A program made the position numbers and the translations under genes. 64,000 nt of DNA, taken from sequence record OR776998; one strand, 5' to 3'. Below the pieces are notes generated by a model that worked only from the letters and a program-made list of their open reading frames with translations, was not told the DNA's origin and searched no databases. This stretch comes from Escherichia phage YX22. This document shows positions 1 through 41,764 of the stretch, piece after piece. The stretch's first letter is position 1. Every line of letters starts with the position of its first letter.

Positions 1-1504
1 CACGGCGCAGCTGCTTGATGTTGTCAACGATTTCGTCGGCCTGCTTGCGCATGGCATCCAGTTCAGCATCCAACACAGCAATGTCAGCAACCAGCTTGTC
101 GTCCTGAGCCTTGTGATCATCGATCAGGACATTGATATCGGCGGTAACTTTGTCCAGTTGATCTAACTTCGACTGTAGTTCCTGGATCTGAGGATTGTAC
201 TCACTCTCAATCCGCGCCTTGGTGTCATCAGACACCAGTTGGGTACATGTTGGGCAAGTCCCCATATCGTGGAAGCGCTTGATGGCCGACTGATGCCCCT
301 CCATTTCAGTCTGGAACTTGATACGGAAGTTCTCACCCTGCTGGCGGCGCTGAATAGCAGCGTTCAGGGTGTCCAGGTTTGTGTTGCGCTCGGTGAGCAG
401 GGTGTTCTTGCGTTCGGCCACTGTAAAGGCGCGGTCACGCAAGACCTGAAGATCATGCTCCGCAGTAGACACTTCGATGCGCTCATAATCGTCAGCCTTG
501 TCCTGCGCGGCGTCCTTCACCGCCTGGATCTTGGCATCAAAGTCTTTCTTGACAGCCTCGATCTCCACCATGGATTCATCATGCAGGCGGCTTTCTACCG
601 TCTTCATTTCCTGGGTGGCTTCAAACTCCACAGCCGTGAGGCGGGTGCGCTCTTCATTCTGGGCGGCGATGTCAGCGTCTAGGGAAGTCAGGGCTTCCTG
701 TTGCTGTACAAGGATATCGGCCGACTGCTGTTGGATAAGGGCATTGGACCGCTCTATCTGCTGTAGCTGCTTCTTCTTGTTGGTGCGGTCAACAACCTTC
801 AACGCACATTCATTCGCTATCGTGTCCAGCTTTTCGTTCGCTTTCTTGATGGCAGCCTTGACATCTTCGTTCATCAGGCTGAAGAAGCCCAAGTCCCAGA
901 TAGTCTCCACCATGGCGCGGCGGTCGGCTGTGTACATCTCCGTGAACGGAATGAACTTCTCTTTGCCCAGCACCAGAGAGTTCTCAAACATCTTCTGGTC
1001 CACGCCGATGAGGTTCACGATGTACTTGTTCATGTCGGCTTTGGCTGCTTCGTTATCGATCTGCAACCACTTGCCGTCCACCATCTGGTAGACTTCAACA
1101 AAGTCAGGTTTAATGCCACGGCGAACCTTCCATTCGCTACCACGGCAGGCAAACTCCACCTCACCCACACATTCCTTGCGGCTCTGTGAGTTAACCAGAC
1201 CTGCCTTCTTCTCCTTCTTGCTGTATGTGTCGTTGTACAGTACGAAAAACAGCAGCCATACCAGCATCGTGGATTTACCCGCGCCGTTGTCATCAGACGT
1301 AACAAGGGTGGCCGGGTTGCGCTGATAATCAATCTCCATGAACTGATTGCCGATGGAGCGGAAGTTCTTGGCGCGGCCTTTGCGGAAGGTCAGTTTGTGT
1401 GTAACAACGTTACGCACTTCAAATGGGACTTCAACCTCGACCGGGGCGTCGGCTTCCTTCAAAAGATTACCAAATTTGGTCAAGATATCTGTGCTCTGAG
1501 TCAT
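1..1504 (-). CDS. 46: gp46-like recombination endonuclease ATPase subunit (SbcC/Rad50 family), N-terminal part; gene runs off the window start
   Basis: Own translation from ATG at 1502-1504 on minus strand: MTQSTDILTKFGNLLKEADAPVEVEVPFEVRNVV...TSDDNGAGKSTMLV (Walker A), then Q/E/L-rich coiled coil. No stop before position 1, so absent from the ORF track. Lies 2 nt downstream of the gp47 stop. Confidence 0.8.
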   Translation of the reverse strand, partial: MTQSTDILTKFGNLLKEADAPVEVEVPFEVRNVVTHKLTFRKGRAKNFRSIGNQFMEIDYQRNPATLVTSDDNGAGKSTMLVWLLFFVLYNDTYSKKEKKAGLVNSQSRKECVGEVEFACRGSEWKVRRGIKPDFVEVYQMVDGKWLQIDNEAAKADMNKYIVNLIGVDQKMFENSLVLGKEKFIPFTEMYTADRRAMVETIWDLGFFSLMNEDVKAAIKKANEKLDTIANECALKVVDRTNKKKQLQQIERSNALIQQQSADILVQQQEALTSLDADIAAQNEERTRLTAVEFEATQEMKTVESRLHDESMVEIEAVKKDFDAKIQAVKDAAQDKADDYERIEVSTAEHDLQVLRDRAFTVAERKNTLLTERNTNLDTLNAAIQRRQQGENFRIKFQTEMEGHQSAIKRFHDMGTCPTCTQLVSDDTKARIESEYNPQIQELQSKLDQLDKVTADINVLIDDHKAQDDKLVADIAVLDAELDAMRKQADEIVDNIKQLRR

Positions 1505-1505
1505 G

Positions 1506-2621
1506 TTATGCATCCAGTTTGTTCAGGCGTTGTTGGGCAGCATTATAGAAGTGCTCTGCCAGTTTACAGACGTTGTCGGGGCGCTGAATGTTGTTCCCGG
1601 CGCGGATATCCTTCTTCAGGACTTCCACCGCATCGGTCGCCACCATCTCTTCGGTGACCTCAACCTTCTCGGCAGCAACAGTAATCGTCCGGTCGATGAA
1701 GTTGTAGTCAATGCACTTACAGCGCTTCATGGCATCATAGAACTTTTCATAATGCTTAGCATTGTCACGGTTCTGTACAATAACCTTAACAATTTGCCCT
1801 TCAATACCCAAGCCTGTGTTCAACCATTCCGGGTCGATCCAATTACCTTCTTCATCAGAGGACAACTTGGTGTAATCATATTCCACATAGCGGAACAGCG
1901 TCTGGTGCTCGGCGTTCGGGATAAAGATCTCACCACCACGCATGTCGTCCACATAGAAGCCACGGTTAGTGCCGTCTTTGTAGTCTTCCCAGTTCAGGTG
2001 ATATGGAGTCCCAATATATTGAATGTTACCTTCCATCGAACGGGTATGGAAATGGCCCGTGTCGACCCTGGTAAACTTGGAAAGCAGAGCAACGTCGATC
2101 TGACCGTGATCACAAGTAGAAGACTGGTACATTTTGAACCCCGCCAGCTCCAGATGCGCAAAACAGTACTCGGCGTCTGTATCTTGTATCGCTTTAATAG
2201 ACGCATCATAGTTCTCCTTGTTGATCCAAGGCAGCAGCAGAGTCTTGACACCCTCGATCATCACTTCGGTCGGTTCGCTGTAATAGCAGTACACATCCGG
2301 GTCGAGTTCGTTCAGGTAGGATGGCCAGTTGATGCGGTTGGACTCTTCCAGGGTGATGTCATGGTTGCCCACGATGCCATTCCACTTGATACCAGCCGCT
2401 TTCAACGCAGGGGTGAGTTCATCCTTCAGCCAGTCTTTGTCGCGCCCGTACATGAATTTGCGGACATCAAACGTATCACCGAACTGCCAGACCTCTTTGA
2501 TATCAGAGTCGGCAAGTTCAGGAATGAAATAATTGATGAGATAGTTCTTGATGAAGTCGCGAACGTATCGAGAACCATTACGGCTCCCGATATGCAGATC
2601 GCCAATTTTAGCAATCGCCAT
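1506..2621 (-). CDS. 47: gp47-like recombination nuclease subunit (Mre11/SbcD calcineurin-like phosphoesterase)
   Basis: 371-aa ORF with phosphoesterase motifs GDLHIG, GDTFD, GNHD and GHFH; ATG start; order 55-47-46 as in T4. Confidence 0.9.
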   Translation of the reverse strand: MAIAKIGDLHIGSRNGSRYVRDFIKNYLINYFIPELADSDIKEVWQFGDTFDVRKFMYGRDKDWLKDELTPALKAAGIKWNGIVGNHDITLEESNRINWPSYLNELDPDVYCYYSEPTEVMIEGVKTLLLPWINKENYDASIKAIQDTDAEYCFAHLELAGFKMYQSSTCDHGQIDVALLSKFTRVDTGHFHTRSMEGNIQYIGTPYHLNWEDYKDGTNRGFYVDDMRGGEIFIPNAEHQTLFRYVEYDYTKLSSDEEGNWIDPEWLNTGLGIEGQIVKVIVQNRDNAKHYEKFYDAMKRCKCIDYNFIDRTITVAAEKVEVTEEMVATDAVEVLKKDIRAGNNIQRPDNVCKLAEHFYNAAQQRLNKLDA

Positions 2622-3399
2622 TGTTCTTTTTCTCCCGTTCTTCTAATCTTTGTTTGAGGGCTTCCCAATCTGGTTCCATCGCACAGATATCATCTTCCAG
2701 ATTGAATTGGGTTTTGCCGAAGTCTTGATCTGAATTGTCTTCGGCCTGCGCTGTTACCGTATTCTTAGCCTGCGCCATGTATTGAAGTATGCCTTTCGCA
2801 ATCTTTTTATTCGATTCTGCGAGACGAGCTGCCTCCACCTTCTCTCGCTCCTTCTGCCTTTGAGCGTCCTTTTTGTTCTCAAAGTTGCCGATACGTTCAC
2901 GGAAGTCCATGCCAATTCCTGTAGCATCAACAAAGACCTCTTGTTGGAAGTCGGGATCGTCTGCCAGGCCTGCGAACCCACCCGCCTCTTCAAATGAGCG
3001 CAATTTAATGTACGTGTGCTCTTCTTCGATATTCAGTTTACGAGCGAATGATCGATCAGCACACATGGTCACCCAAGAGAAGAAGTTGATCTTCCCTTTC
3101 TTTCCAATGTGTTCGACGTCAAATGTGTGGAGGTAACGCAGGATGTTGACGATTGCTTCAGAGACCATGTCTTCACGGAAGGGATAATCGCGATAGTTGT
3201 AGCGGGTACTCATCTTGGTGATGATGCGCTGGACCTGCAGAGCAACATAGTTGGGGATCTTTGGAAGCCTGGTGCCCTCAGCAAGTGCTTTCTTGCGAGC
3301 AGGGATCCAATCACGAAGGATACTAATGACACGCTCGTTGTCTTCGTCCGTGAAATATTTGACGACATTCTCCCCTCTGTCCACGAAGTTCATTCCCAT
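2608..3399 (-). CDS. 55: gp55-like late-transcription sigma factor
   Basis: Segment ITKMSTRYNYRDYPFREDMVSEAIVNILRYLHTFD matches the T4 gp55 core pattern (RFNFSGY...FD) recalled from memory; position upstream of 47/46; GAGG about 9 nt upstream of the ATG. Confidence 0.7.
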   Translation of the reverse strand: MGMNFVDRGENVVKYFTDEDNERVISILRDWIPARKKALAEGTRLPKIPNYVALQVQRIITKMSTRYNYRDYPFREDMVSEAIVNILRYLHTFDVEHIGKKGKINFFSWVTMCADRSFARKLNIEEEHTYIKLRSFEEAGGFAGLADDPDFQQEVFVDATGIGMDFRERIGNFENKKDAQRQKEREKVEAARLAESNKKIAKGILQYMAQAKNTVTAQAEDNSDQDFGKTQFNLEDDICAMEPDWEALKQRLEEREKKNNGDC

Positions 3400-3410
3400 T
3401 ATGATAGTCC

Positions 3411-3938
3411 TCAGATACCGATAAATTCATCAAAAGATCCAACAACCTTCTTCACCGAGATCTTGTCATTCTCAATCAGGAAGTTGCTGTCGTTTTTGGC
3501 TGCTGTAGCCCAGTCATCGGCAAGTTCGTTGCCTTCGTGTCCCGCATGACCCTTAACCCATTTTAGTTCAACATCACAAATTGAACAAACGAGATCATAG
3601 ATTCTGAACAGATCTTTGATGAGTTCAACGTTCTTTTCTGGGAAACCCTGATACTCCCACTTCGTTCGCCATTCGGTGACACTCTTGATGGCATATTGGC
3701 TGTCAGACCAAATTGTTGCCTTTGGTATTCTGCGCTCACCCTTTCCTGAGAATGCCCACAGTAGCTTCAATGCGTTGGTCACACCCAACAACTCGGCGAT
3801 ATTGTTAGTGGACGGGGGAGGTAGATGACCGAAGAACACCTTCCATTGCATACCCGTTATTGGCCTGATGACAAATGCCCAGCCTGCGGCCTGGTTGGTC
3901 TTCGGGTTAGAACCCCCGTCAGAATAAATTTCTATCAT
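3411..3938 (-). CDS. Ribonuclease HI (RNase H type 1 fold)
   Basis: Internal ATG at 3938 gives MIEIYSDGGS...; motifs SDGGS, NNIAELLGV, SDSQYA and WVKGHAGHEGNELADDWA closely match E. coli RNase HI (TDGS, TDSQYV, WVKGHAGHPENERCDELA). The upstream part of the 207-aa track ORF is probably not translated. Confidence 0.85.
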   Translation of the reverse strand: MIEIYSDGGSNPKTNQAAGWAFVIRPITGMQWKVFFGHLPPPSTNNIAELLGVTNALKLLWAFSGKGERRIPKATIWSDSQYAIKSVTEWRTKWEYQGFPEKNVELIKDLFRIYDLVCSICDVELKWVKGHAGHEGNELADDWATAAKNDSNFLIENDKISVKKVVGSFDEFIGI

Positions 3939-4751: not shown

Positions 4752-6466
4752 ACCTCAAACACGGCATCAGTGAACCAAGCGGGGAAGAACTCTGGGTTGC
4801 GCATCATCAGTGATTCAAAAGAAGAATCAAGGATGTACGTCGCAGCCCAGTCATTCACGCCCCTGACCGAACGCCCACACATCTGAACGATACGCAGTAC
4901 CGCCATCCTGAAGTACGCCGATGGGTCCACACTGTTGACGTGGGCCACCAGAGGATCACCAAGGTAATCATATGGCACCTTGATCAAGATCTGAAATCGA
5001 CTATAATCGCCTTTGAAGTCATACCCCTCTTCCATGGACGGACTGGCGATGACACAAGGTGTCTTCGTCCTGAACGCGTGTTCCATGATGTCCATCAGAG
5101 CCTTACGAGTACGAGGAACGTGAATCATATTCCGGTACTTACTGAACTTTTGTAGAGCCAGGGCGCGGTCATAACTGACTGTGTGAATGATGCCAGACTG
5201 CCCAGGGTGGAACGCGATAATTTCATCCACGTATTCAGCCAGCTTCTTCATCTCGTAGTCACCCATGTTCGCTGTCATCTTCATGATGGGCATGTAGTTG
5301 ACTTTCCGGTTCTCAATCGGGATAGGGTTGCCGATCTGTATCTTGTGGTACTCACCCTCGCGGATACCCAGTGACCGGGCGTACGAGTCAATCCCGCAAA
5401 TGGTAGCCGACATGTGAACGTGGTAGTCACCCTTGCGGAACAGGCCGAACTGGGATACATCAGAGGCGATGACAGGCTTGAACTGAATCATACCCTTGTC
5501 CTTCTCCTGTACGATGAAAGTGCTGGCGTTGGTCTGCCCCATGATACCACAGTAGTCGCTGAGGTTGTGAAGAGTATCAATAATATCAGACAGCTTCATC
5601 ACCTGGGCTTCAGTCAGGCGCTCGTCCTCTACCAGTTCCTCAAGAGTTTCCAACAGGGCTTCAACCTTGCCGTGCAGTTCATCAAATATCGCATGCATCT
5701 CACCAGACAGGGAATACAGCTTGCCCAATTCATAGTTATCTGTGCGGATGATGATATCCTTGATGGTCTCCACGATAGGCACTCCCTCGGGGATCGTAAG
5801 CAACCCTTCCACAGCCTTTATGTTGTATTCCATGATAGTATGCTCTAGGAGCGTAGAGGGCATCTTATGACACTCGTCAAGGATCAGCATATCGGCACGG
5901 TTTTCCGGCTTCATACAAATCGTCGTACACATCTCCACCATCATGGCGGCGTTGGTGCAGCGCAGGGAGGAGACGTCGGTCCACTGTCTACGCGCCTGAA
6001 CATATGGGCAACGATTCTTACTACAGTGGCCATCACGGCATGCCATACGGCACTGAATGGCGTTGTAGTATAGGTCGGGACTGATGTGGCAACGATAGTT
6101 CTTCTTGCCCTTCAGGATGTCTATCGCCACGGCTTTCTCTGCTGCATACTGATCCTGTAAACCTTTGGTCGGCGTCGTGATAGACGTGCGGAACTGACCA
6201 TACGGGTTGTGCTCAAGAACCAAATGGCGAAGCACGTTATGGATGGTAGTGCCGATGAGGGATTTACCTACACCAGTCGGAGCCTCGATGATCACGTGTT
6301 TGAATTTCTTATTCACAAGGGCATCGATGGCTTCAACGATGCATTCCATCTGGCCGGGGTTGGCGGTGTCATACGGGAAGAACTCAGTGGCAAGAGATTT
6401 GATGCGGTCTATGCTGACTGGTCCGACGCCGTCAAGCGCCTTGGTATATTGGTTGAATGCTGTCAC
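4748..6466 (-). CDS. DinG/XPD (Rad3)-family SF2 helicase with Fe-S cluster domain
   Basis: 572 aa; Walker A IIEAPTGVGKS; DEAH-like box ILDECH; four Cys in CHISPD...QCRMACRDGHCSKNRCPY typical of the XPD/DinG 4Fe-4S insert. Start codon is GTG at 6464-6466 preceded by strong SD AGGAGGA. Confidence 0.85.
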   Translation of the reverse strand: MTAFNQYTKALDGVGPVSIDRIKSLATEFFPYDTANPGQMECIVEAIDALVNKKFKHVIIEAPTGVGKSLIGTTIHNVLRHLVLEHNPYGQFRTSITTPTKGLQDQYAAEKAVAIDILKGKKNYRCHISPDLYYNAIQCRMACRDGHCSKNRCPYVQARRQWTDVSSLRCTNAAMMVEMCTTICMKPENRADMLILDECHKMPSTLLEHTIMEYNIKAVEGLLTIPEGVPIVETIKDIIIRTDNYELGKLYSLSGEMHAIFDELHGKVEALLETLEELVEDERLTEAQVMKLSDIIDTLHNLSDYCGIMGQTNASTFIVQEKDKGMIQFKPVIASDVSQFGLFRKGDYHVHMSATICGIDSYARSLGIREGEYHKIQIGNPIPIENRKVNYMPIMKMTANMGDYEMKKLAEYVDEIIAFHPGQSGIIHTVSYDRALALQKFSKYRNMIHVPRTRKALMDIMEHAFRTKTPCVIASPSMEEGYDFKGDYSRFQILIKVPYDYLGDPLVAHVNSVDPSAYFRMAVLRIVQMCGRSVRGVNDWAATYILDSSFESLMMRNPEFFPAWFTDAVFEV

Positions 6467-24072: not shown

Positions 24073-25062
24073 TCACTTCCACTTGATGTTGAGCATGACA
24101 TTGGTCAGGAAAAACACAGCATGCAGCCAGACATCGCCGACTTGACGGTGTTCAATCTGAGACTGACCACATACGCATACTAGATCAGGGATAGACTCAT
24201 TCTGAACCAACATTTGCTTCTCTTTATCCTGTGGTACACAGAACTGGAAGAAGCGGGAATAGAAGTCTTCAGTGATATAGTTCTGGTTGTCGGTCACCCA
24301 CTGCTTCATCCCAGCCCAGTCATTATCCTTCAACATATTCACCAACATGCCCATATCGGCCGATTTTAACACAGCCAGTGCACGTTCGTCGATCTTGCCG
24401 TAAGTGGTGACGTTATCCTGTAGAACACCCATGATGCGGCGGTTATCAGGGAAATGGCGCTTGACAATAGCAGCCAACACAGGAGGGTCATACTCAACAC
24501 CTTCGCAGCGAAGGATTTCAGCACAGCGGCGCATGAACTGAAGTTTGACCTCATCAGCCTCGGTCTCATTCCAGATAAAGTCGATTTCACGGCAACGAGA
24601 GCGCAGAGGTTCGTTCACACGTTGCTTGGCGTTGGTGGTCAAGATGAATGAACAGTTCTTGGAGACCTTCTCCACAATACCCTTCAGCGACTCCTGTGCC
24701 GCCATAGACAGACGCTCTACTTCGTCGAGGATAACGACTTTGCGGCCACCGAATACGCTCACACCAGTAGAGTACTGAATCACGCGGTCACGGATAACGT
24801 CGATGCTGTTGTCCAGGGATGCGTTGATCATCAGTGGTTGCTTACAACCGATTTCATTACACACGGCCAGGGCGGAGGTAGTCTTGCCAGTACCAGGCTG
24901 AGGGGAGTAGAACAGCATAGACGGGATGTTGCCGTTGCCGCTGGTGATGTAGCCATGGATTTTAGCGCGGACGTCTTGAGGGATGATAATCTCGTCCAGG
25001 TTGTCAGGGCGGAAACGGTTCTCCCAGGCGTACTGGTCTTTTACAATCGTGATATTAGACAT
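24073..25062 (-). CDS. 44: Clamp-loader large subunit gp44 (AAA+ ATPase)
   Basis: 329 aa; Walker A SPQPGTGKTTSALAV; Walker B ILDEVE; its ATG overlaps the stop of the upstream homing endonuclease gene by 1 nt. Confidence 0.9.
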   Translation of the reverse strand: MSNITIVKDQYAWENRFRPDNLDEIIIPQDVRAKIHGYITSGNGNIPSMLFYSPQPGTGKTTSALAVCNEIGCKQPLMINASLDNSIDVIRDRVIQYSTGVSVFGGRKVVILDEVERLSMAAQESLKGIVEKVSKNCSFILTTNAKQRVNEPLRSRCREIDFIWNETEADEVKLQFMRRCAEILRCEGVEYDPPVLAAIVKRHFPDNRRIMGVLQDNVTTYGKIDERALAVLKSADMGMLVNMLKDNDWAGMKQWVTDNQNYITEDFYSRFFQFCVPQDKEKQMLVQNESIPDLVCVCGQSQIEHRQVGDVWLHAVFFLTNVMLNIKWK

Positions 25063-25718
25063 TATGTATTTCCATGATATAGTTTACAGAACAGAACCCA
25101 AGCGTCGTCATCATACGGGTTCCAGCCCTCTTTGAATTTGTTTAACATACTCGTTGCGGTGTTCTCTTTGATAGAGAACAAACGGGCAATTCTATGGCAC
25201 CCATCACCAGTAGAAACCCAGTGATCATACACTACCCCAGCCTTTAACCACATCGGTCTGGTGTTGTGTAGCAGCGCAGCCCCGGTGTCCCAGGGTTTTA
25301 TTCCTGCGGCGGGGTGGCTTTTACCAGTTCTTCCGTGCATGGGATGAAGATTCCCAGACTTACCCTTCAACCAACTCGAGACACCAACTCGGTGATGTTT
25401 GGGTCCCGCTGACCTACCGTTGGCGATACCACAACCCAGTGGCTGAAATGATTTGTTTAAACATTTTGGGTGATCAATGTTCTCACTAATCAACTGCTGC
25501 TCTCTCCAATATGCTTCTTCTGGGGAGTCAAACAGTTCTACGAATTCTACATCAAAGAAATCAGAACCTTTCTTAGATATGATTTCCTTGACTGTTTGTG
25601 AAGAAGTGAAATATGAAGTGAACAATTGTAAAGGATGTGCACCCAATTTCGTTCTAGAACCAAAATAGAAAGAACCATCCTTCCCTAACAAATGATATAC
25701 AAACGGTTGGTTCCTCAT
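25062..25718 (-). CDS. GIY-YIG family homing endonuclease (Seg-like), free-standing between genes 45 and 44
   Basis: ATG at 25718 preceded by GAGG (5-nt spacer); N-terminal PFVYHLLGKDGSFYFGSRT (GIY...YIG module); C-terminal basic G/K/H-rich repeats resembling NUMOD-like DNA-binding motifs; T4 has rpbA at this position. Confidence 0.65.
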   Translation of the reverse strand: MRNQPFVYHLLGKDGSFYFGSRTKLGAHPLQLFTSYFTSSQTVKEIISKKGSDFFDVEFVELFDSPEEAYWREQQLISENIDHPKCLNKSFQPLGCGIANGRSAGPKHHRVGVSSWLKGKSGNLHPMHGRTGKSHPAAGIKPWDTGAALLHNTRPMWLKAGVVYDHWVSTGDGCHRIARLFSIKENTATSMLNKFKEGWNPYDDDAWVLFCKLYHGNT

Positions 25719-25751
25719 TTCAGCCTCGTGTAGAAGAATCATTTCAAATAG

Positions 25752-25770
25752 GCGGGGAACGCCCCCGCCC
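25752..25770 (-). terminator. Hairpin between gene 45 and the homing endonuclease gene
   Basis: Stem GGCGGGG/CCCCGCC with 5-nt loop, followed on the minus strand by TATTTGAAATG; a TGcTATAAT-like -10 sequence sits just upstream on the minus strand (about 25775-25786). Confidence 0.5.
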
Positions 25771-25799
25771 ACACATTATAGCATCAGGCTGGAGATTGA

Positions 25800-26468
25800 T
25801 TACTCAATCTGTGCGCCGACGAAGTAATTGATCGTCGCGTCGGATGATTGGAAGTTCACCATCTGTAGATCAGCACATGCACGCAGAGTGTAGTTGCCTT
25901 CGATCATTTTCAGGTTGGCAACATCCAGCGGCATTACGAAGTCCGGCAGCGCGGTTTCGCCCAGCTCAACAGTGTAGTTGTTGGAGTTGTCCAGGGTAGT
26001 GGTGGTTGCAACCAGGCGTGTTTTGCCACCCTGAGCAACCAGGCGCACAGTCTTGTGTCCGAGGGTAGAACAGGCGCGGGTCAGTTCTTTCATCTTCTCT
26101 GGAGTGATGATCGCTTCAAAGTCGACAGACGGCAGCTCAATGGTGTCAGCCGGAACAACAGTGAGTTCTTTAGCAGAACGCCAGAATTGCAGCTGAGAAC
26201 TTTCGCCCTTCAACAGGATGTAGTCCTGATGGAATTCGGCTTTGGCACCTTTGAAGGAAGGTAGGCGCTGGATGGCCAGAAGTTTGGTCAGGTCCAGAAT
26301 CGGGAACTCAAACGGGAAGTCTTCTTCGATCTGCGCCACGGCGATCACAGTAGAAGAATCATTAATACTGCGCAGCATCTTGCCCGGTGTCAGAACGATA
26401 GATGGGTTGATGGTCTCAAAGTTGGCCAGCAACTGAAGTGTACGTTCGGAGAGAGTGATCTCTTGCAT
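25800..26468 (-). CDS. 45: Sliding clamp gp45
   Basis: 222 aa; begins MQEITLSERTLQLLANFETINPSIVL, parallel to T4 gp45 (MKLSKDTTALLKNFATINSGIML); length and position agree. Confidence 0.9.
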   Translation of the reverse strand: MQEITLSERTLQLLANFETINPSIVLTPGKMLRSINDSSTVIAVAQIEEDFPFEFPILDLTKLLAIQRLPSFKGAKAEFHQDYILLKGESSQLQFWRSAKELTVVPADTIELPSVDFEAIITPEKMKELTRACSTLGHKTVRLVAQGGKTRLVATTTTLDNSNNYTVELGETALPDFVMPLDVANLKMIEGNYTLRACADLQMVNFQSSDATINYFVGAQIE

Positions 26469-41230: not shown

Positions 41231-41764
41231 TTAGAGAGACTTGTCTGAGATGGCCTGGAAGTAACGCAGGTCAACAGTGAACTGAGTATAAGAGTCCATT
41301 GCAGACATGTCCAGTTCCAGCTGACCGAGGTTCTGAGGCCAGGTGCCCTGAAGGGTCCAGGTCTTGGTGACGTTGTCATTCGCATCCAGCAGTTCCATGA
41401 TTACATCACGGAAATAATCATCTGGGTTAGCAGACGCACGGTTGTTGTTGCTGCCGTTGATGTACTGCTGCCAGACTTCGAATGCGTTGTACGGGGCGTT
41501 GTCCACGACGTTGATGAACGTCACAGGCAGCGCCTCGAAACGACGGTCACCTGGGAATGGAAGTTCACGACCACCCCATGGGACGAGTATTTCTCCGAGC
41601 TGGCCTGTTGGGGTATTTGTGGTCACCGCCAACAGCGAAACATCACGGATAGTATCGCTTCCAGCCACGAAGGAAGGGAAGTTAACAGTCACACGCCAAC
41701 GGTGTTGGCGCTGAACGCCACCCCCGCGTGACATAGCTGCTCTGAATTCATTAACTGTAGCCAT
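41231..41764 (-). CDS. 19: Tail tube protein gp19
   Basis: 177 aa; size and position between sheath and portal genes as in T4. Confidence 0.8.
   Translation of the reverse strand: MATVNEFRAAMSRGGGVQRQHRWRVTVNFPSFVAGSDTIRDVSLLAVTTNTPTGQLGEILVPWGGRELPFPGDRRFEALPVTFINVVDNAPYNAFEVWQQYINGSNNNRASANPDDYFRDVIMELLDANDNVTKTWTLQGTWPQNLGQLELDMSAMDSYTQFTVDLRYFQAISDKSL

Follow-up and report, generated by a model that had tools for sequence, protein, structure and literature searches.

A probable homing endonuclease gene at the start of the clamp-loader gene 44 in Escherichia phage YX22 and other Ackermannviridae

Introduction

What is a third open reading frame (ORF) doing between the sliding clamp gene gp45 and the clamp-loader gene gp44 of Escherichia phage YX22, when most relatives of this phage do without it? 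We addressed this question in a stretch of 64,000 nucleotides (nt) from sequence record OR776998, referred to here as the window, in which gp45, the ORF, gp44, gp62 and regA follow one another on the minus strand (Table 1). Homing endonucleases of the free-standing GIY-YIG kind are a familiar feature of T4-like phages and are known to be numerous in the Ackermannviridae as well. An earlier, sequence-only reading of the window had taken the ORF for such an enzyme, placed between the sliding clamp and clamp-loader genes and marking an active homing site, and had credited it with transcription signals of its own.

The phage belongs to the Ackermannviridae (Aglimvirinae) and is not T4-type, as judged from assignment of the region by megablast. 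The closest relatives of the 45–44 region are Escherichia phages PC3 and PH4 (98.8% identity), and phage A221 matches the window region at 99% identity except for a gap of ~650 bp. The analysis described below leads us to consider it highly probable that the ORF is a mobile, free-standing homing endonuclease gene (HEG) of the modular SegE-like or I-TevI-like GIY-YIG kind, an ORF-only cassette at the gp44 start that homes into gp44. The clamp-loader gene itself is the probable target of the endonuclease.

Results

Distribution and divergence of the endonuclease ORF

Presence of the ORF was counted over 273 phage records matching the 45–44 region. It occurs in 15 of them, corresponding to 13 genomes, and a protein at least 80% identical to its product was found in those same 15 records only. 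Carriers in the Aglimvirinae are PC3, PH4, SP-9-14, SW16-7 and pSal-SNUABM-02; CAU_YEP3, an unclassified member of the Ackermannviridae, groups with them by flank similarity and has an HEG variant that is 81% identical. In the Cvivirinae, the gene is carried by the Kuttervirus phages allotria, Mansal, UTK0004, SilasIsHot, KE31, S115 and rabagast. Extra copies were seen in one Salmonella assembly contig, one metagenome contig and one IMG/VR contig. A pattern scan of IMG/VR returned 19 loci, mostly the same isolates, and a metagenome scan for the junction between the HEG 3′ end and gp44 returned one contig only, of the deletion type described below. The site is thus polymorphic, and alignment of the 45–44 junction shows clean endonuclease-less alleles.

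Synonymous divergence (pS) of the HEG does not follow that of its neighbors gp44 and gp45, and departs from it in either direction. When the window is compared with pSal-SNUABM-02, pS is 0.036 for the HEG, 0.53 for gp44 and 0.35 for gp45, and between the window and allotria, which belong to different subfamilies, the corresponding values are 0.15, 0.68 and 0.65. For pSal-SNUABM-02 and CAU_YEP3 the relation is reversed, with a pS of 0.575 for the HEG and of only 0.10 and 0.07 for gp44 and gp45. The ORF also has a guanine-plus-cytosine (GC) content of 44%, compared with 50–52% in the flanks. Since the divergence is decoupled and the GC content offset, the ORF is better described as a laterally moving element than as an ancestral gene with many losses, and the comparisons indicate that the HEG has been transferred laterally among Ackermannviridae phages. 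In rabagast (2963..3619 of the extracted locus), and by match pattern in S115, the endonuclease is mostly of the window type, with a C-terminal third and 3′ end of the CAU_YEP3 type. This chimera shows that the two endonuclease alleles have recombined with each other.

Junctions of the insertion

Comparison of filled and empty alleles delimits an insertion that contains the ORF alone. The 45–44 intergenic region measures 737 nt in the window versus 81 nt in A221, Ag3 and SKML-39, and 734 nt in allotria versus 77 nt in BRM 13313; in the latter pair 1 nt is accounted for by a difference in the G-run of the leader hairpin, and the insert is again 656 bp. Placement of the junctions is ambiguous by the AATG repeat, and we describe the insert as running from the ATG through the TA of TAATG. 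The junctions are identical in the Aglimvirinae and the Cvivirinae. The empty alleles that were read come from A221, Ag3, SKML-39, MK-13, AV101 and EspM4VN (Agtrevirus and related Aglimvirinae), Ds25CZ (Limestonevirus), BRM 13313, Vi01 and others (Kuttervirus), and Menlow and IME250 (Taipeivirus). Every one of them contains a −10-like hexamer, then a GC hairpin followed by (T)TTTGAAA, and finally ...GAGGCTGNA joined to the ATG of gp44, and an intact, conserved junction between the Shine-Dalgarno sequence (SD) and the ATG is common to the empty alleles of three genera.

These junctions also bear on the possibility that the ORF is no mobile element but an ancestral gene of the Ackermannviridae that has descended vertically with many losses. 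Its identical position and junctions in two subfamilies are what such a history would leave, and at least one deletion derivative exists (see below). Repeated precise losses, however, are unlikely to have produced the intact SD–ATG junction in empty alleles of three genera. When this is added to the between-subfamily pS of 0.15 in the HEG against 0.65–0.68 in the flanks, to near-identical genomes whose HEGs differ at a pS of 0.575 and to the atypical GC content of the ORF, purely vertical descent becomes scarcely credible.

A mechanical ORF call starts at a GTG (25772) and gives a protein of 236 amino acids (aa). The true start is evidently the ATG at 25718, which lies 5 nt past the GAGG and yields 218 aa; we chose it because most related records annotate it and because the gp44 ATG of the empty alleles lies at the same point. 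At the other end, the endonuclease stop codon overlaps the gp44 start, as had been noted from the sequence (TAATG, 25064..25060): the TAA (25064..25062) shares a nucleotide with the gp44 ATG (25062..25060). Upstream of the respective start codons, empty alleles read ...GAGGCTGNAATG-TCTAAT (gp44) and filled alleles ...GAGGCTGNAATG-AGGAAC (HEG). From this alignment, the cassette has evidently taken over the gp44 SD and start context, and gp44 now starts at the stop codon of the ORF.

The leader belongs to gp44

The sequence-only reading had attributed to the endonuclease its own TGcTATAAT-like promoter and a hairpin in its leader. Both elements are where they had been seen, the extended −10-like TGCTATAAT at 25783..25775 and the GC hairpin at 25769..25751, but neither came with the endonuclease. 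TGCTATAAT is identical in the HEG-less A221, Ag3, SKML-39 and AV101, and its positional equivalent in Kuttervirus and Taipeivirus is TTTATTAT / TTTAATAT. The hairpin core is a 7-bp stem, GGCGGGG/CCCCGCC (25769..25763 and 25757..25751), closing a 5-nt loop, GCGUU. All empty alleles have a hairpin in this position; its stem is GGCGGGG in Agtrevirus and Kuttervirus and CAGGGGC in Taipeivirus, and the record of Klebsiella phage Menlow annotates it as a terminator. Its conservation rests on direct reading, because MAFFT mis-registers the stems and RNAalifold, applied to the leaders, gave a weak consensus of 5 pairs only. A simple two-hexamer sigma-70 scan called no promoter at TGCTATAAT, and a terminator scan did not call the leader hairpin. 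Since TGCTATAAT, the hairpin and the GAGG are all present in HEG-less alleles, they constitute the ancestral leader of gp44.

A hairpin and promoter that regulate the endonuclease in the manner of I-TevI, segB and mobE were also considered. The I-TevI and segB arrangement is one of a promoter within a hairpin (PMC2988022), and it was rejected for the present locus, both elements being part of the empty alleles.

In the minimum free energy fold, CAGCCU (25789..25784), upstream of the −10-like element, pairs with AGGCUG (25726..25721), which covers the SD. The SD could therefore be masked in transcripts reading through from gp45 and not in transcripts starting from TGCTATAAT. This long-range fold is no better than that of shuffled sequences (z −1.44), and its upstream arm is absent in Kuttervirus and Taipeivirus, outside the Aglimvirinae.

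A recoded gp44 segment accompanies the endonuclease gene

If the ORF moves by homing, what does it recognize? HEG-bearing (HEG+) and HEG-less sister pairs are near-identical apart from a stretch just 3′ of the insertion. Over 1440 nt, the window and AV101 differ at 15 positions, 12 of which fall in gp44 nt 15–50 (P 1e-14). The same segment holds 12 of the 23 mismatches between SP-9-14 and Ag3 (P 2e-11), and gp44 nt 36–54 holds 8 of the 13 between allotria and BRM 13313 (P 1e-8). No other clustered differences were found in these pairs, either in the 1440 nt downstream or in gp45. Flanking markers are therefore co-converted with the HEG over a tract of at most 54 nt.

At the centre of this tract is a short recoded patch. 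HEG-less genomes read GCN TGG GAA AAC AAR TAY CGY (AWENKYRP), while HEG+ genomes of the window type read GCC TGG GAG AAC CGT TTC CGC (AWENRFRP). The diverged HEG of the CAU_YEP3 type is accompanied by GAG AAC AAG TAC AGA, that is, by G42 and an AGA codon. All 12 HEG+ sequences have G at nt 42 of gp44, and all HEG-less sequences that were read have A there. In allotria and KE31, the patch itself (nt 36–54) is donor-type and the interval between it and the HEG (nt 9–30) is of the recipient, Kuttervirus type; for this reason the patch seems to have been retained in its own right. The KYRP of the HEG-less form is a conserved clamp-loader motif (RFC box II), and T4 gp44 carries EQKYRP.

We slightly favor the interpretation that the patch is the recognition and/or cleavage site of the enzyme and that carriers possess an immune version of it.

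Features of the endonuclease protein

The ORF contains the motif PFVYHLLGKDGSFYFGSRT. Taken alone, its product scores 18.0 bits against SegE_GIY-YIG (PF19835, cut-off 25) and 14.3 bits against GIY-YIG (PF01541, cut-off 22.6). A single-sequence homologue search retrieved 2 proteins only and a profile built from paralogues retrieved 44; among 40 aligned homologues, SegE_GIY-YIG was matched by 21 and GIY-YIG by 8 (both at E ≤ 0.001), and NUMOD3 by 12. When the family profile was compared with PDB sequences, only GIY-YIG domains were matched (BH0048 and the I-TevI catalytic domain), with the Tyr, Tyr-Gly, Glu and Asn residues aligned. An AlphaFold2 model (mean predicted local distance difference test score, pLDDT, 85) has a confident N-terminal domain of beta-beta-alpha-beta-alpha topology, a confident helical C-terminal domain and low confidence for residues 100–140. 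The N-terminal domain forms a three-stranded beta-sheet flanked by helices, as in the I-TevI fold, and the best three Foldseek matches to the model are GIY-YIG structures. Profile searches, PDB profile matches, model and Foldseek thus all support the fold of a free-standing, Seg-like GIY-YIG endonuclease, as first proposed. Neither of the two results that would have refuted that proposal, a lack of profile support for the fold or universal presence of the gene in related phages, was obtained.

In the 40-member alignment, the GIY...YIG pair is ~10 residues apart, FVY(8)HLLGKDGSFY(18)FG(20)S, with Y8, Y18 and G20 invariant or at least 90% conserved. E73 and N88 are likewise conserved and align with E75 and N90 of I-TevI in the profile–PDB alignment. 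The description of the remainder as a basic, repeat-rich tail was loosely right: a low-confidence linker does carry GxxHPxxG[KR] repeats, which are seen in the alignment and differ in number between paralogues, but it is followed by a compact helical domain resembling a helix-turn-helix (HTH). NUMOD3 (PF07460) is matched by the 12 homologues mentioned above and has no match at E ≤ 0.1 in the window protein. The predicted architecture is therefore modular: a GIY-YIG nuclease at the N terminus is joined by a NUMOD3-like linker to an HTH-like, putatively DNA-binding domain at the C terminus.

Each of the 12 copies that were examined encodes the full 218 aa. Pairwise ratios of non-synonymous to synonymous divergence (pN/pS) among 10 copies range from 0.05 to 0.27, or from 0.15 to 0.27 without the near-identical window/pSal-SNUABM-02 pair; by this measure the ORF is evidently under functional constraint. 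An alternative reading is that of a domesticated or nuclease-dead protein, kept for instance as a DNA-binding regulator of the 44-62-regA operon or as a translated leader needed by gp44, and spread by ordinary recombination only. In its favor, the ORF sits in the translation initiation region of gp44, whose expression may therefore be affected by translation of the ORF; the window protein scores under the Pfam thresholds; and I-TevI is also known as a repressor (PMC2988022). We nevertheless find domestication quite improbable. The hallmark residues Y8, Y18, G20, E73 and N88 are invariant or nearly so across the family, most relatives do without the ORF, and discordance between HEG and flank divergence, together with nucleotide-precise junctions across subfamilies, is a prediction of homing.

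With tblastn, paralogues at 35–41% identity were found in other Ackermannviridae, where they are annotated as GIY-YIG homing endonucleases. Free-standing GIY-YIG endonucleases of the family have been catalogued in LIMEstone1 as F-LimI to F-LimXI (Adriaenssens et al. 2012, PMC3296691). The nearest paralogues of the window HEG are F-LimVI, at the rnh/gp55 junction, and ChubbyThor gp176, at the uvsY/exonuclease junction; they have the same domain order and likewise abut or overlap the start of a conserved downstream gene. Unlike them, the window HEG occupies the 45/44 site, where LIMEstone1 has an unannotated scar instead. No significantly similar paralogue was found elsewhere in the 64-kb window. 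Salmonella phage D5lw has a paralogous GIY-YIG endonuclease gene in the rnh–gp55 interval (2492..3198 of the extracted locus); its annotation covers 534 nt only and its tblastn match falls in two pieces, which suggests that this copy may be frameshifted and decaying.

A deletion scar at the 45/44 site

The scar is shared by LIMEstone1, RC-2014, Coodle and one metagenome contig, in which the 45–44 spacer is 104 nt long (2964..3067 of the extracted LIMEstone1 locus). The ancestral TTCTTCTACAAGAGGCTGA, SD included, and most of the ORF have been deleted between two AATGA repeats, so that the leader now runs into the final 47 nt of a CAU_YEP3-type ORF, followed by an RF-type gp44 patch. This arrangement shows that the 3′ end of the ORF is apparently able to act as a gp44 initiation region. 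Thirteen other Dickeya phages lack the scar, since only the upstream half of the scar query was matched; Ds25CZ, the sole one of these that was read, has the ancestral empty KY allele. The LIMEstone1 record places one 'putative middle promoter' inside endonuclease-derived sequence, and the 14 endonucleases listed for that phage do not include the 45/44 remnant (PMC3296691).

At a different site, the uvsY/exonuclease spacer of pSal-SNUABM-02 ends, just before the exonuclease start (8828 of the extracted locus), in ...CAAGGATCATATATAATG, similar to the ...CAAGGATTATACATAATG found at the 3′ end of the paralogue in ChubbyThor. The spacer may hold another scar of this type.

Neighboring genes and other observations

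Coordinates of the features are given in Table 1. The gp45 product also matches Pfam gp45-slide_C, below threshold, and the gene is annotated as the sliding clamp in all relatives.

Table 1. Features of the 45–44 region and a further GIY-YIG ORF in the window
Feature	Coordinates	Strand	Basis or remark
gp45, sliding clamp gene, upstream neighbor	25800..26468	−	PHROG_223 DNA polymerase processivity factor, E 1e-64
TGCTATAAT, extended −10-like element of the host 45–44 intergenic region	25775..25783	−	Read directly
GC-rich hairpin followed by UAUUUGAAA, host element	25748..25772	−	RNAfold
GAGG Shine-Dalgarno, ancestrally of gp44, now of the endonuclease	25724..25727	−	Filled versus empty alleles
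Insertion, 656 bp, endonuclease ORF alone	25063..25718	−	No non-coding DNA of its own; AATG repeat (4 nt) at both ends
Endonuclease coding sequence, 218 aa + stop	25062..25718	−	PHROG_314 homing endonuclease, E 6e-17
N-terminal GIY-YIG catalytic domain, aa 1–95	25434..25718	−	Y8, Y18, G20, E73, N88 conserved in family
Flexible basic linker, GxxHPxxG[KR] (NUMOD3-like) repeats, aa 96–145	25284..25433	−	pLDDT 48–66
C-terminal helical, HTH-like putative DNA-binding domain, aa 146–218	25065..25283	−	Compact, confident helical in model
TAATG, endonuclease stop over gp44 start	25060..25064	−	Read directly; same in 12/12 HEG+ sequences
gp44, clamp-loader ATPase gene, downstream neighbor	24073..25062	−	PHROG_168, E 5e-104; Pfam AAA, Gp44_lid, DNA_pol3_delta2
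gp44 nt 36–54, C TGG GAG AAC CGT TTC CGC (WENRFRP)	25009..25027	−	Recoded patch, strictly HEG-linked
Second free-standing GIY-YIG ORF, 237 aa	41785..42498	−	MIGSVYKITN...KAYIGIT; Pfam GIY-YIG, E 5e-9

The ORF had originally been placed in the 'rpbA position', which the T4 record contradicts: on the transcribed strand the order there is 45.2-rpbA-45-44-62-regA, so that rpbA precedes gene 45, and the gap between 45 and 44 is only 50 bp. That 50-bp spacer (5868..5917 of the extracted T4 locus) has a layout like the Ackermannviridae leader, with a GC hairpin (GGGCTTCGGCC), TATAAT, an SD and the ATG of gene 44.

Within gp44, nt ~481–600 (~24463..24582) of the window are just 60–65% identical to pSal-SNUABM-02 or CAU_YEP3, compared with 83–93% in the adjoining blocks, and pSal-SNUABM-02 and SKML-39 are 87–88% identical in this block. 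The pattern suggests an internal mosaic segment, apparently unrelated to the endonuclease. In A221, regA is annotated at 177 nt (1053..1229 of the extracted locus) versus 465 nt in all relatives, which may reflect a frameshift, a sequencing error or a mis-annotation. The second free-standing GIY-YIG ORF of the window stops 20 nt upstream of a tail-tube (gp19-like) gene (41764..41231) and is unrelated to the 45–44 endonuclease beyond the motif.

Discussion

How would such a cassette spread, and how would gp44 be expressed behind it? In a mixed infection, the enzyme would bind and/or cut the KY-type gp44 of HEG-less phages no more than ~55 bp from the insertion point. If the enzyme works as I-TevI does, its C-terminal domain may bind the patch and the nuclease cut ~20–35 bp away, near the insertion point, and this would agree with the lack of any conversion toward gp45. 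Double-strand-break repair or phage recombination would then copy the ORF and the immune patch from the donor. The endonuclease would be expressed with the timing and strength of the gp44 initiation region. The sequence-only reading held that gp44 depends on read-through; a better description is that gp44 has evidently kept its upstream transcription signals and lost its own SD to the endonuclease. In carriers, translation of gp44 would most likely start by termination–reinitiation at the TAATG, or else use a weak GGA within the endonuclease 3′ end, and the TAATG coupling would penalize polar disruptions of the endonuclease ORF.

Several points weigh against parts of this reading. The single protein falls under the Pfam gathering thresholds for both PF01541 and PF19835, the catalytic Arg can be assigned only tentatively, to R22, and R27 of I-TevI aligns to no conserved Arg. 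Judging from the LIMEstone1 scar, expression of gp44 does not require a translated HEG upstream. Other points concern the patch, which could be a hitch-hiking co-conversion tract, or an older polymorphism of an RF lineage, with the true site of a genuine HEG lying elsewhere, for example deeper in gp44 or in gp45, as for T4 SegF and SegG, or in the leader. The characterized free-standing endonucleases of T4 usually have their cut sites hundreds of bp away from the gene itself (PMC2988022). HEG-less alleles of the RF type, with different synonymous sites and with A42, exist in A221 and LIMEstone1, and at the uvsY/exonuclease junction of ChubbyThor the gene downstream of the paralogue has no comparable patch. 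On the other hand, the patch is linked to the HEG in 12 of 12 HEG+ sequences and through several independent sister-pair contrasts; allotria and KE31 have kept it across an intervening recipient-type segment; and neither the 1440 nt downstream nor gp45 offers another cluster of differences. A target elsewhere is therefore unlikely in our view, though it deserves appreciable weight.

Returning to the patch as target, the most complete scheme would be the following. The HEG captured the gp44 initiation region, with polar disruption penalized as a result; it recognizes the codons of WENKYRP (RFC box II), a near-universal clamp-loader motif; carriers were driven to WENRFRP at a position that is essential and deeply conserved; and A221, as a resistant empty allele, and LIMEstone1, as a scar from which gp44 now takes its initiation region, represent later stages of the cycle. 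In combination these elements form a tentative proposal, which we regard as a serious possibility.

Among known systems, the closest parallel is the 'intronless homing' of T4 SegA–G. These are also free-standing GIY-YIG ORFs between essential conserved genes, in the same orientation and using host transcription signals; they are sporadically distributed, are inherited together with converted flanking sequence and lie in a replication gene module of the T4-like kind. The window HEG differs in having no detectable orthology to any specific seg gene beyond the domain family, in residing in the Ackermannviridae, in beginning at the ATG of the host gene with no ribosome-binding site of its own, and in its proposed target at no more than ~55 bp from the insertion rather than hundreds of bp. 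T4 itself has free-standing cassettes that lack a promoter, such as segC, segF and segG (Edgell, Gibb & Belfort 2010, PMC2988022), and one that is without a ribosome-binding site of its own as well departs only slightly from them. I-TevI, from the T4 td intron, combines a GIY-YIG catalytic domain, a flexible linker with a minor-groove NUMOD3-type element and a C-terminal HTH, an order that the predicted architecture of the window HEG resembles. Unlike I-TevI, the window HEG is not intron-encoded, is just ~16–20% identical in the catalytic domain and has no evident zinc finger; regulation through a late promoter and hairpin is inapplicable because the hairpin belongs to the host leader.

The 45–44 endonuclease thus adds a new member, mostly unannotated or annotated automatically, to a well-known class, and does so in a family where endonucleases were already known to abound. 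In most deposited genomes of these phages, which are candidates for therapy and biocontrol, the gene is labelled 'hypothetical protein', and the LIMEstone1 45–44 spacer, its 'putative middle promoter' included, is partly endonuclease-derived. The site combines nucleotide-precise junctions with a very short, sharply bounded candidate target and immunity patch, and it offers a natural series that would run from sensitive empty alleles through two diverged endonuclease alleles and their chimera to a resistant empty allele and a deletion scar. This series allows tests of target-site immunity, of minimal co-conversion and of a selfish ORF that would borrow the ribosome-binding site of an essential gene.

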